Assembly (NCBI GenBank): GCA_030837225.1
Contig: JAUPKX010000007.1
Location: 65,182 to 129,181, forward strand
Length of the DNA stretch: 64,000 nt
Reading direction: 5' to 3'
Source: Patescibacteria group bacterium
GTDB taxonomy: Bacteria; Patescibacteriota; Minisyncoccia; Phycocordibacterales; Phycocordibacteraceae
The translations under genes and the position numbers were made by a program. The notes under the pieces are model-generated. The model was not told the origin of the DNA and made no database searches. It was given only the letters and a program-made list of their open reading frames with translations. Shown here piece by piece: positions 244 through 42,607 of this stretch; the first letter of the stretch is position 1; every line of letters starts with the position of its first letter.

Positions 244-320
244 TGGCGCGGTCGAAGGGACTTGAACCCTCGGTCTCCGCCGTGACAGGGCGGCGCTTTA
301 ACCAGCTAAGCTACGACCGC
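244..320 (-). tRNA. tRNA-Asp (anticodon GTC), CCA encoded
   Basis: Minus-strand read GCGGTCGTAGCTTAGCTGGTTAAAGCGCCGCCCTGTCACGGCGGAGACCGAGGGTTCAAGTCCCTTCGACCGCGCCA folds as a cloverleaf. Acceptor GCGGTCG/CGACCGC, D-stem GCTT/AAGC, anticodon stem CCGCC/GGCGG, loop CTGTCAC. Confidence 0.9.
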
Positions 321-321
321 A

Positions 322-1023
322 TTATTTGTCAAGTCTTAAAACTTGTATCGCTTTTTCTAGTTTCTCCCGCTTTCGCGGCAGAGACAGGTCAGAGACTTCA
401 GCAGTATGATACATGAGGCGATAGAGTGCAAGACTGTCATGATGACTGAACTTCAACTCAAATCCGCTTGCAGATTTCTTACAGAAAGACCCTCCTCGTA
501 CACCATATCTTCTGAGTGCCGTGTGCAGTGACTGCAAAAAGCTCAGAGACCCAGATGTAAATAGCGTGAGCAGTACCCACCGTTTATAGCTTCGATCTGC
601 ATACTTGAGCTCACTAAAGTATACACACCCATCTCCATCGAAATACCCGCGCACGAAATGGCCTATATACTTCTGTGGAATATTTGGGAACTCAAGCGCA
701 TTGCTTTTGTGTTGTCTAAAACCTAGTGCTGCAAGATCGGTAAACCACTCTTTACTCCCTATCTGCAATCGATACAGCTGCTTCCAATGTTTTTTGTTCC
801 GCGCATCCGGAGTACGTTCTGCAATCTTATGATTTGAACCGATTGCGCGCTGAATTTGTTCAAGCACTATTCGATCGGTGATATTAAACTCAATGAAGTA
901 CCCGCCCCTCTTATTTGCAAGCATCGAACCATCGGCAGCAAAGAATCCAAGAACATACGCCATATTCGATGACCATGTCTTGAAGAAATCTTGATTTAAG
1001 GTTCGAGCCAGCGCCATACACAA
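322..1023 (-). CDS. LAGLIDADG-family homing endonuclease, double-motif monomeric type, free-standing
   Basis: 233 aa with two dodecapeptide motifs (VLGFFAADGSM and VRGYFDGDGCVYF) about 100 aa apart, typical of single-chain LAGLIDADG enzymes. The stop codon abuts the tRNA-Asp 5' end. GC content is lower than the flanks. Confidence 0.8.
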   Translation of the reverse strand: MCMALARTLNQDFFKTWSSNMAYVLGFFAADGSMLANKRGGYFIEFNITDRIVLEQIQRAIGSNHKIAERTPDARNKKHWKQLYRLQIGSKEWFTDLAALGFRQHKSNALEFPNIPQKYIGHFVRGYFDGDGCVYFSELKYADRSYKRWVLLTLFTSGSLSFLQSLHTALRRYGVRGGSFCKKSASGFELKFSHHDSLALYRLMYHTAEVSDLSLPRKREKLEKAIQVLRLDK

Positions 1024-1085: not shown

Positions 1086-1160
1086 TGGTGCCGGTGGGTG
1101 GAGTCGCGCCACCGTCTAGGGTTTATGAGTCCCTCGTTCTAACTCTTGAACTACACCGGC
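1086..1160 (-). tRNA. tRNA with anticodon CAT (elongator Met or lysidine-modified Ile2), CCA encoded
   Basis: GCCGGTGTAGTTCAAGAGTTAGAACGAGGGACTCATAAACCCTAGACGGTGGCGCGACTCCACCCACCGGCACCA. G1-C72 is paired and position 11:24 is a Y:R pair, both elongator-like. The anticodon loop is CTCATAA. The T-loop CGCGACT and an A31/A39 mismatch are unusual. Confidence 0.75.
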
Positions 1161-15766: not shown

Positions 15767-15847
15767 TGTCTTCTAGATTGCATCAATAGAACACTGTCGA
15801 TCGTGGATGCGCTTCGCTCTTATCTGCAGGCAAACCGTGTAATCGTG

Positions 15848-16167
15848 TTGCGGGGGCCGGAATCGAACCGGCGTCTGGAGGTTCTTTTACACCTACTGTT
15901 TCCAGAAGGAATGGACTATACCATGATCCTGAACCAGGATCCTCCCATTATAGTCTCTGAACCTTTCCCGGAAAATTCCGAGACTTGGCTGCTGATTGCC
16001 GAATCTTCTTGTTTTTCAAGCATTCACGCTCATCCTTTCGGATCACGTTGTAGCACAAGAAGCTCTAACGGTATTCCAGCAATTTAGAGAGTTTTTCCAC
16101 TACCCGTTACCGGATAGGGTCACGTTGTTCACATGAGCCTCCCGAGGTACCTCTCCTCTACCCCGCT
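15848..16167 (-). tRNA. tRNA(CAT), likely initiator-type Met, interrupted by a group I intron (exons 16133..16167 and 15848..15883)
   Basis: Joined exons give AGCGGGGTAGAGGAGAGGTACCTCGGGAGGCTCAT|AACCTCCAGACGCCGGTTCGATTCCGGCCCCCGCAA. This folds as a canonical cloverleaf: 7-bp acceptor with unpaired A1/A72, U8, D-stem GAGG/CCTC with A11:U24, anticodon stem GGAGG/CCTCC, loop CTCATAA, T-arm GCCGG-TTCGATT-CCGGC. No CCA is encoded. Confidence 0.75.
15884..16132 (-). mobile_element. 249-nt ORF-less group I self-splicing intron in the tRNA(CAT) anticodon loop, between the anticodon and position 37
   Basis: Contains the conserved group I core elements R (GTTCAGAGACTATAA) and S (ATGGTATAGTCC), giving P7 GACTA/TAGTC. 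U at the 5' splice site, terminal G at the 3' splice site, and a candidate P1 guide (GTGACCC) pairing with the exon GGCTCAT. Confidence 0.7.
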
Positions 16168-16295
16168 ATATACTGCTTCATTGAAGAAGCTCAAAAAAGC
16201 ATACCACTTTACTAAAAAGAGTACAATTCTGAGTAGATATAAGGTTATTGCATGGGGTTCATAAACCTCGAATTTTATGATGCTATTCTTGATAT

Positions 16296-16664
16296 ATGCC
16301 TCACAAGGACCCCGAGCGCGCAAAGGAGTATCACGCGAAGTATATGAAAGAAGTGTGGTATCCGAAAAACAAGGAGAAGCACCTTGCTTACGTGCGTCGT
16401 AACAAGCAGCGAGTTACAGCATTCATCGCAGCGTACAAAAAAGATCGCTCATGCACAGACTGTGGGTTCTCGGGGAAGGAATTCCCTTTTGTACTTGATT
16501 TTGACCACCTCGATGGAGGTCTCTCGAAGAAATTTACAATCGGCAGCTGGTCACACTCAGTACTCAGCATTGAAGCTATTGAAAAAGAAATTGAGAAGTG
16601 CGAACTTGTGTGCGCAAACTGTCACCGCATACGAACCTTCTCTAAGAAGGTTGTGGAGGGCTAA
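16296..16664 (+). CDS. free-standing HNH-family (homing-type) endonuclease
   Basis: C-x2-C ... FDHLDGG ... ELVCANCHRIRT (His-Asn-His beta-beta-alpha-metal motif with zinc-finger cysteines). Lower GC than the flanks. 129 nt from the intron-containing tRNA. Confidence 0.75.
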   Translation: MPHKDPERAKEYHAKYMKEVWYPKNKEKHLAYVRRNKQRVTAFIAAYKKDRSCTDCGFSGKEFPFVLDFDHLDGGLSKKFTIGSWSHSVLSIEAIEKEIEKCELVCANCHRIRTFSKKVVEG

Positions 16665-39163: not shown

Positions 39164-39240
39164 GCACCCTTAGCTCAGTTGGTTAGAGCACGGAGCTTAT
39201 ACCTCCGCGGTCCTTGGTTCGAGTCCAAGAGGGTGCACCA
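39164..39240 (+). tRNA. tRNA-Ile with rare anticodon TAT (UAU; decodes AUA), CCA encoded
   Basis: GCACCCTTAGCTCAGTTGGTTAGAGCACGGAGCTTATACCTCCGCGGTCCTTGGTTCGAGTCCAAGAGGGTGCACCA. Anticodon stem CGGAG/CTCCG, loop CTTATAC. Confidence 0.8.
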
Positions 39241-42154: not shown

Positions 42155-42561
42155 GGGGGTGACCGGCTTTGACGGTCCTGTACTTTGAGAGACGTGCGAC
42201 GCGGTGGAAGGATACTGACCACCTAAAAACGTATTCAATCAAACTTGCCAAGAACACTCTTGCAAGCGTAAAGTCGCCTTACTTCGGTAAGAAGGATTTT
42301 GCGTTCGCTTACGCGTAAAAGCTTCGCGCTTTCGCCTAAGCGACGTTCATACATCTCCGTTTCTTCAGGGAGTTGTATGGGCGGAATCTTCTGAAGAATC
42401 GGTATCGAGAGCCTCCCTGCCTTCGGCCTAAAAGATGGGACTAGGCAGAAGTGTTTTGGCTAACGTTCCTATGCTCCTGCTGAACCCTCAACGTTAGCTA
42501 CGCGTCGTAGACTCGCTCTTAAAGCAGGATTCGGACCGGAGTTCAACTCTCCGCACCTCCA
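42155..42561 (+). ncRNA. ssrA: transfer-messenger RNA (tmRNA, ssrA), about 407 nt, CCA not encoded
   Basis: 5' GGGGGTGACCGGCTTTGACGG resembles the tmRNA 5' consensus (GGGGCUGAUUCUGGAUUCGACGG). 3' T-arm CGGAG-TTCAACT-CTCCG plus acceptor CACCTCC-A. The acceptor includes a G3:U70 wobble pair, the alanine identity element. Lies immediately downstream of smpB. Confidence 0.7.
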
Positions 42562-42562
42562 C

Positions 42563-42607
42563 ATATAGAAACTATAAAACCGCCCTCTGGGCGGTTTTAT
42601 AGTTTCT
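42563..42607. terminator. 20-bp perfect inverted repeat terminator (bidirectional) after ssrA
   Basis: tagaaactataaaaccgccc-tctg-gggcggttttatagtttcta. Confidence 0.6.

Follow-up and report, generated by a model that had tools for sequence, protein, structure and literature searches.

A group I intron without an open reading frame in the predicted initiator tRNA gene of a Patescibacteria bacterium, and a free-standing HNH endonuclease-like gene at the same locus

The interrupted tRNA gene

We analyzed a stretch of 64,000 nucleotides (nt) from a Patescibacteria group bacterium (GenBank assembly GCA_030837225.1, contig JAUPKX010000007.1, positions 65,182 to 129,181), which is called the window below and whose first letter is position 1. 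Its minus strand carries a transfer RNA (tRNA) gene with the anticodon CAU that is broken between nucleotides 36 and 37 by an insert without an open reading frame (ORF), and close to the 5' end of this gene begins a divergently oriented ORF assigned to the HNH endonucleases (Table 1). Judged from sequence comparisons, the locus very probably combines an ORF-less intron of group I in an initiator tRNA gene with a putative free-standing HNH homing endonuclease.

Read on the minus strand of 15780..16260, the 5' piece of the tRNA (AGCGGGGTAGAGGAGAGGTACCTCGGGAGGCTCAT) is followed by the 249-nt insert, which begins with GTGAACAACGTGACCC and ends with GTAGGTGTAAAAG, and by the 3' piece (AACCTCCAGACGCCGGTTCGATTCCGGCCCCCGCAA). 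The Rfam model Intron_gpI (RF00028) matches the insert over its full length (model positions 1-253, 16123..15892 on the minus strand); the score is 68.7 bits, where the gathering score is 50, and E=2.6e-15 with respect to the whole window. With its intron search switched on, ARAGORN reports a tRNA-Met(cat) with a 249-nt intron ('ctcat-Intron-aacct'); in its default mode it overlooks the gene, as does the Rfam tRNA model, and the tRNAs reported for the window are then four others. A previous reading of the DNA by a model, made from the sequence alone (hereafter the sequence-only reading), had proposed that a group I intron interrupts the anticodon loop of a tRNA(CAT) gene. This proposal is borne out by the significant covariance-model score, by a P3/P7 pseudoknot with covariation in P3 and by the identity of the spliced product to uninterrupted genes; the positions it gave, the intron length, the R and S elements, and the U and G that it named for the 5' splice site and the intron end were all correct. 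It was also right that the intron is too short to encode a protein, and it overlooked the HNH gene 129 nt upstream.

For comparison we took a single genome from each species, searched it with a degenerate pattern of the initiator tRNA 3' half and obtained at least 119 loci, nearly all of them from Patescibacteria or unclassified metagenome-assembled genomes (labelled Paceibacteria/Parcubacteria, Kaiserbacteria, Nomurabacteria or generically) and one labelled Bacillota. The 118 evaluable sequences comprise 116 of the listed 119 loci, the window and one further locus that could be delimited; the counts of loci given below refer to those listed.

Removal of the intron in silico yields 71 nt up to the discriminator A73 (320 - 249 = 71), with CCA not encoded, rather than the 72-nt tRNA described before, and the acceptor stem consists of 6 base pairs and an A1·A72 mismatch rather than 7 complementary pairs. 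Among the 81 intron-less orthologues, 29 have an uninterrupted gene with 100% identity to this product, including that of the closest relative as judged by flanking genes (L069), so that the exon ends are settled without recourse to an intron model. The 33/34 junction, the known site in tRNA-fMet, could be ruled out: there is no CATAA downstream, and since the 3' exon begins with AACCUCC only the 36/37 junction restores CUCAUAA. The order of genes in which GatA and a 197-amino-acid (aa) protein precede the initiator tRNA is kept at most of the relatives' loci, and exact copies of the neighbouring GatA protein were found only in the Logan assemblies SRR24011132-35.

Table 1. Coordinates of the interrupted tRNA gene, its intron helices and other features of the window
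Feature	Coordinates	Strand	Remarks	Source
Whole split tRNA(CAU) gene	16167..15848	minus		
5' exon, predicted initiator tRNA(CAU)	16167..16133	minus	35 nt, nt 1-36 in standard numbering, anticodon CAU last (CTCAT)	ARAGORN intron search
Group I intron, ORF-less	16132..15884	minus	249 nt, tRNA position 36/37, GTGAAC...AAAAG	Rfam RF00028
3' exon	15883..15848	minus	36 nt, A37 to discriminator A73, AACCTCC first, CCA not encoded	ARAGORN, orthologues
5' leader hairpin GCUUC-N6-GAAGC	16175..16190	minus	tRNA 5' end lies 7 nt downstream	Read from sequence
P1	16120..16136	minus	5' exon UCAU and two intron nt with internal guide ACGUGA	Alignment columns 7-12 with 18-23
P2 hairpin	16097..16119	minus	GNRA loop (GUAA); compensatory changes in 7/9 pairs	
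P3 5' strand CUCUC	16091..16087	minus	Pairs with GGGAG at 15946..15942	
P4-P5 domain	15990..16081	minus	Extended P5a/b arm, GAAA loop, A-rich bulge; P5a, 8/8 pairs covary	
P6/P6a	15961..15989	minus	P6a, 6/6 pairs covary	
R element GTTCAGAGACTATAA	15962..15948	minus		
P7 5' strand GACUAU	15955..15950	minus	In R element; pairs with AUAGUC at 15919..15914 in S element	
P8 hairpin	15925..15941	minus	4/6 pairs covary	
S element ATGGTATAGTCC	15924..15913	minus		
P9 hairpin	15892..15909	minus	GAAA loop; 6/7 pairs covary; followed by UGUAAAAG up to terminal G 15884	
Free-standing HNH endonuclease gene	16296..16664	plus	122 aa, divergent from the tRNA	PHROG
ORF with two LAGLIDADG motifs (LGFFAADGS, VRGYFDGDGC)	322..1023	minus	233 aa	Pfam LAGLIDADG_3, E=1.8e-12
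tRNA-Met(CAU)	1160..1086		75 nt, CCA encoded	
tRNA-Asp	320..244			
tRNA-Ile(UAU)	39164..39240	plus	Anticodon uncommon in bacteria	
Transfer-messenger RNA (tmRNA)	42155..42564	plus		Rfam, 96.4 bits

Fold of the intron and its comparative support

An alignment of 18 class-A introns, each with 10 nt of the 5' exon and 7 nt of the 3' exon, was folded with RNAalifold, which recovered the anticodon stem, P1, P2, P3, P4, P5, the extended P5a/b arm, P6/P6a, P8 and P9, with compensatory changes in 42 of the 78 predicted pairs. After P7 had been added to this structure as a pseudoknot (80 pairs in total), 98.1% of the cells held standard pairs, as opposed to 39-43% when the partners were slid by 1-3 columns; compensatory changes occur in 42 of the 80 pairs, and none of 500 shuffles matched the observed values. 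Every one of the 18 introns has the U·G wobble (16133:16123) at its 5' splice site, the two intron-internal pairs of P1 covary, and the last intron nucleotide is an invariant G in the homologues. In P3, three of the five pairs switch on both sides between sub-lineages (CG to UA, UA to CG) with 100% of cells paired; P5 covaries as well, P4 shows only a one-sided change from U-A to U·G, and the 3-pair P6 is invariant. GNRA loops close L2, L5b and L9. The predicted structure thus contains a P3-P7 pseudoknot, P7 crossing P3 with six of six positions complementary; neither its absence nor that of a significant covariance-model match, which the sequence-only reading had named as grounds for refutation, applies here.

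Two observations limit the support for this fold: P7 is invariant in the 18 introns, so that covariation speaks neither for nor against it, and a convincing P10 pairing was not found for the 36/37 intron. The structural model nevertheless leads us to regard the element, with high confidence, as a group I intron that is predicted to splice itself. It could also be asked whether the interrupted gene is dead, with the intron decaying inside a pseudogene. Its exons match orthologues that look functional without a difference, and an invariant core together with compensatory changes that hold the helices across 18 species points to selection for folding that is still at work, so that we consider decay extremely improbable.

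The 3' strand of P3 directly abuts P8 (which starts at 15941), so that extra helices would not fit between the two, unlike in IA introns. The P5a/b arm aligns with introns labelled IB2 in Table S5 of PMC13011429. A family profile (nhmmer) matched tRNA-Asn introns from the same study with 48.8 bits in the core only, an actinobacterial tRNA-Lys intron labelled IB2 in that table with 27.6 bits over nearly the whole length, the 33/34 introns of the relatives themselves with 17-27 bits, and the Anabaena tRNA-Leu intron with 9.6 bits. An IC3 label like that of Azoarcus was rejected, as nhmmer found no match to IC3 introns of Acidobacteria or to the Azoarcus intron, the latter being a weak test. We therefore use "IB2-like" as a label, which is not a formal subgroup assignment.

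Identity of the host tRNA

The host tRNA combines the anticodon CAU with an A1·A72 mismatch, G2:C71, C3:G70 and A11:U24, the last of which is specific to initiators. Its acceptor stem, including G2:C71 and C3:G70, presumably matches that of Escherichia coli tRNA-fMet. Of the 81 intron-less orthologues, 72 have A and 9 have C at position 1, in each case facing A72, and one intron-bearing locus has T there. The initiator-like A1/A72 and A11:U24 to which the sequence-only reading had drawn attention are both real, and its remark that the anticodon stem lacks the three G-C pairs is correct: the three consecutive purine:pyrimidine pairs A29:U41, G30:C40 and G31:C39 form an au/GC/GC stem, with two of the three G:C pairs of the strict rule. 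Its conclusion that the identity is unclear does not stand, in that au/GC/GC is a natural initiator variant of alpha-proteobacteria and some mycoplasmas (PMC5389676) and is conserved in 79 of the 81 intron-less orthologues. G2:C71 and C3:G70 are determinants for Fmt (PMC5389676).

The other tRNA-Met(CAU) gene of the window has a normal G1:C72 pair, and the presence of tRNA-Ile(UAU) suggests that no lysidine-modified tRNA-Ile2(CAU) takes part in the reading of AUA; together they cover the remaining decoding roles of CAU and AUA. All this bears on the alternative that the host is an elongator tRNA-Met or, as for the 36/37 intron of Azoarcus, a tRNA-Ile2(CAU) with lysidine. Such a host would agree with the location of the 36/37 introns of Azoarcus and Bacteroidota (tRNA-Ile2(CAU) in PMC13011429 Table S5) and with the incomplete set of G:C pairs. 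The conserved 1:72 mismatch, the natural occurrence of the au/GC/GC stem and the two tRNAs already available for the other roles make it very improbable. By its sequence features, the interrupted gene is thus best described as the initiator tRNA (tRNA-fMet) of this Paceibacteria/Parcubacteria-type member of the Patescibacteria.

We also observe that tRNA-Ile(UAU) fits a set of CAU tRNAs that consists of just two, the initiator and an elongator.

Introns in the same tRNA of related species

An intron in the anticodon loop of this tRNA is present in 35 of the 118 evaluable sequences, the window included. Nineteen sit at 36/37 (CTCAT/...G/AACCTCC, slashes marking the splice sites) and fall into the sub-lineages A1 (13 loci, among them the window) and A2 (6 loci), while 16 occupy the classical tRNA-fMet site 33/34 (GGCT/...G/CATAACC; L011, L014, L027, L035, L036, L039, L051, L053, L056, L057, L063, L086, L088, L090, L105 and L120). 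The latter carry the core GUGUAGAGACUAGACGG, which is typical of IC3-type introns in the literature table. Two unrelated lineages of introns are therefore found at two positions of a single 7-nt loop in this phylum. About 30% of the sampled Patescibacteria species bear an intron in the initiator tRNA; the description of such introns as rare, made in the sequence-only reading, does not hold for this sample, and introns of this kind in the phylum had already been reported (PMC13011429). The scan was seeded with the 3' half of the window's own tRNA, so the frequencies are values of the sample.

ARAGORN in intron mode gave wrong anticodons or splice sites for many of these loci, for instance tRNA-Leu(cag) i(34), tRNA-Ser(tga) i(36) or tRNA-Leu(caa) i(36), and automated surveys that use it would miscount both the type of tRNA and the position of insertion.

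The intron of L030 (1187..1597) belongs to the same lineage as that of the window and has a GC-rich insertion of 91 nt in the P6a loop, which brings it to 340 nt; its Rfam score is 52 bits, slightly over the threshold.

The HNH gene beside the intron

A distance of 129 nt separates the start codon of the HNH gene from the 5' end of the tRNA, and at its other end the stop codon overlaps with that of the neighbouring gene. The 122-aa product matches HNH endonuclease families of PHROG (E=8.4e-24 and 3.1e-23) and, weakly, the Pfam HNH model (E=0.07); its profile found no significant match among sequences from PDB. By eye only, it resembles the HNH ORFs that lie inside Patescibacteria tRNA-Asn introns (Table 3 of PMC13011429). 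The catalytic and zinc-binding motif residues C53, C56, D70-H71, C102, C106, N108 and C109 do not vary among 28 homologues, 27 of which also retain H110; the remaining one has Arg in place of His. A median ratio of nonsynonymous to synonymous substitution rates (dN/dS) of 0.07 (116 pairs among 28 sequences) indicates purifying selection. Together with the invariant motif, it argues for a working gene rather than a relic.

Among the listed loci, tblastn found homologues only at L022, L025, L030, L040, L087, L100 and L102, seven out of seven with an A1 intron at 36/37, and queries with more distant members of the family added no further loci to these. With the window counted, the HNH gene stands beside 8 of 13 A1 loci and 0 of 105 others (Fisher p=1.8e-9, a value that ignores shared ancestry). 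The stretch that separates the 197-aa gene from the tRNA measures 481-512 nt at six HNH-bearing loci and about 40-130 nt at most loci that lack the HNH gene. Upstream of the tRNA, the stem of the leader hairpin is maintained despite sequence changes at other HNH-bearing loci (L102, L025, L040 and L100), and in its place HNH-less loci have a promoter-like TTGCAA-N17-TATTGT directly upstream of the tRNA. The hairpin may be part of a cassette that arrives with the HNH gene. A scan for consensus promoters around the tRNA of the window gave no match.

A second scan, of metagenomes, was seeded with the alignment of HNH proteins and gave 67 loci. The tRNA with the intron of the window's lineage is near the HNH gene at 20 of the 21 evaluable loci whose homologue has at least 70% identity, immediately upstream and divergent in all but one of them. 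In other Patescibacteria, more distant homologues (40-60% identity) adjoin the orthologous initiator tRNA, which is either intron-less (L143, L144, L150-L154 and L157-L160) or carries an intron of the 33/34 type (L146-L149, L155, L156, L164 and L175), and those still further away are located in tRNA arrays. The home of this HNH family is the initiator-tRNA locus, with the intron not obligatory.

As for the one exception among the close metagenome homologues, L126 (1..360), only the tRNA's first 17 nt (AGCGGGGTAGAGGAGAG) are left beside the HNH gene, after which unrelated sequence follows; the locus has been rearranged, or else it is a chimera of the assembly.

Proposed splicing and mobility

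The predicted structure suggests the following course of splicing. The precursor would be transcribed and the intron would fold into a P1-P9 group I core, in which the UCAU end of the 5' exon pairs with the guide GUGA and places a U·G wobble at the splice site. Exogenous guanosine would attack the 5' splice site, the freed 3'-OH of U36 would attack after the terminal G, and the ligated exons would be finished as a 71-nt tRNA by RNase P and the CCA-adding enzyme. Splicing must work if the interrupted gene is the only initiator tRNA gene of the genome, as the data suggest.

The HNH gene could be a free-standing homing endonuclease that cooperates with the intron, a reading by analogy with known systems that we rate a little short of probable. 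The enzyme would cut or nick tRNA-fMet loci that lack both HNH gene and intron, repair from an occupied locus would copy the HNH gene together with the nearby intron (collaborative or trans homing), and the intron may shield its host gene, in that it divides a target extending across the anticodon loop. The distribution of both elements agrees with some mobility. The closest relative, L069 (93% identity in the 197-aa protein and 80% in GatA), has neither of them and a spacer of 40 nt, and the next closest, L059, has the intron and lacks the HNH gene, so that even close relatives are polymorphic for the latter. These two loci count against pure vertical descent, and a neighbour-joining tree of GatA, a single gene, requires 21 state changes for 22 intron-bearing taxa.

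Cooperation has to be weighed against another reading, in which the intron splices and the HNH gene is an independent selfish element homed at the initiator-tRNA locus, the intron being now immobile, inherited vertically and sporadically lost. Several findings weigh on its side and against cooperation. The distant homologues beside intron-less tRNAs, or beside unrelated 33/34 introns, show that the family needs no intron and that the link could result from shared descent; 5 of the 13 A1 loci have the intron without the gene; and at L087 (1035..1803) the gene is not upstream and divergent but follows the intron-bearing tRNA on its own strand at a distance of about 80 nt, so that it must have moved independently of the intron at least once. 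Pairwise identities of HNH proteins and of introns also run roughly parallel to those of host genes, so that the clear horizontal transfer of both elements that we considered is not borne out. A scan of viral contigs yielded one moderate HNH relative, beside a tRNA-Met, and no evidence of a phage reservoir. The separate-element reading is less easily reconciled with the lack of any close homologue beside an intact intron-less tRNA (0 of 105 listed genome loci, 0 of 21 evaluable metagenome loci), or with the scatter of carriers among intron-less species, which calls for about as many losses as there are carriers. We regard it as conceivable and on balance rather doubtful.

A further argument for cooperation comes from a second, unrelated ORF family of about 230 aa with an N-terminal helix-turn-helix (HTH) and an invariant GLGLYWGEGYK motif. 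Its members are upstream of and divergent from the tRNA at 13 of 22 loci with other intron lineages (33/34 and A2) and at 2 of 96 others, the same adjacency as that of the HNH gene. Pfam finds only the HTH in these proteins and there is no match among PDB sequences. They had looked by eye like LAGLIDADG proteins, an assignment that was rejected when hhalign against the genuine LAGLIDADG protein of the window gave a probability of 0.1%. As a tentative generalization, which we would not yet call probable, ORF-less introns of initiator tRNAs may be kept mobile by external endonucleases, the HNH protein serving the 36/37 introns and the HTH family the others.

Other features of the window

The 233-aa ORF with LAGLIDADG motifs is free-standing between tRNA-Met(CAU) and tRNA-Asp, which are only 40-190 nt apart in other contigs from Patescibacteria. 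Judged from its sequence, the genome has in this ORF another homing-endonuclease-like gene that stands free within a cluster of tRNAs. The tmRNA carries insertions of about 40-50 nt relative to the family model, and its middle pseudoknots are aligned with low confidence.

Implications

Because the interrupted gene escapes ARAGORN in its default mode and the Rfam tRNA model alike, genomes of this lineage will seem to be devoid of an initiator tRNA, and about three in ten of the sampled species are affected by such a gap in annotation. If the intron splices as modelled, an essential RNA with a single purpose would depend on a self-splicing ribozyme in a very reduced genome. Should the link to the HNH gene be functional, the locus would provide a testable cellular example of cooperation between an intron and an external endonuclease. 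External endonucleases of this sort, if real, would explain why tRNA introns without an endonuclease of their own are common and patchily distributed in this phylum; collaborative homing would then operate in a cellular, essential RNA gene, and the inference that the tRNA introns of the phylum are largely immobile would be overturned. For the present, the adjacency of the HNH gene suggests that this inference, made by Nakagawa et al., merits re-examination.

Relation to known systems

That tRNA genes of bacteria, Patescibacteria among them, can harbour group I introns is already known. Nakagawa et al. (2026, mSystems; PMC13011429) described them in 95 complete genomes of the phylum, where introns at 35/36 of tRNA-Asn and tRNA-Asp, classed as IA, dominate; only two were found in tRNA-Met(CAU), both at 33/34 and in Microgenomatia. 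Endonuclease genes were sought only inside the introns and mobility was concluded to be limited. The intron of the window shares with theirs the phylum, the short and ORF-less form, the location in the anticodon loop and the failure of standard tRNA finders to detect it, and its core is closest to that of their tRNA-Asn introns. It differs from the IA introns in its site (36/37 rather than 35/36) and in the absence of extra P3-P8 helices, and from the introns of that study in that the candidate endonuclease is encoded outside.

Free-standing endonucleases that act on a neighbouring intron are known from phages: MobE of T4, also an HNH protein, mobilises the nrdB intron in trans (PMC2790892), and collaborative homing, including that of the cyanophage enzyme F-CphI with the psbA intron, has been reviewed (PMC3984707). 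Both have in common with our locus an intron lacking a working endonuclease of its own and, close by and inherited together with it, a free-standing endonuclease gene (HNH in the case of MobE). They reside in protein-coding genes of phages and were demonstrated experimentally, whereas at our locus a tRNA gene of a cell serves as host and the link is one of co-occurrence only.

The cyanobacterial type of tRNA-fMet intron (33/34, IC3) has the initiator host and the general mechanism in common with the intron of the window and differs from it in site and lineage. The tRNA-Ile(CAU) intron of Azoarcus sp. BH72 (36/37, IC3) is likewise inserted after CAU, pairs this exon end with a GUG guide and has P2 directly after it; its host is tRNA-Ile2 rather than the initiator, and it is without the extended P5 arm. 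The 36/37 insertions after CAU in the part of the all-bacteria table of PMC13011429 at hand are likewise in tRNA-Ile2. Measured against the survey of complete genomes and this part of the table, the intron at 36/37 of the initiator tRNA, itself identified with high confidence, represents a new combination of site and host for an element of a known kind.

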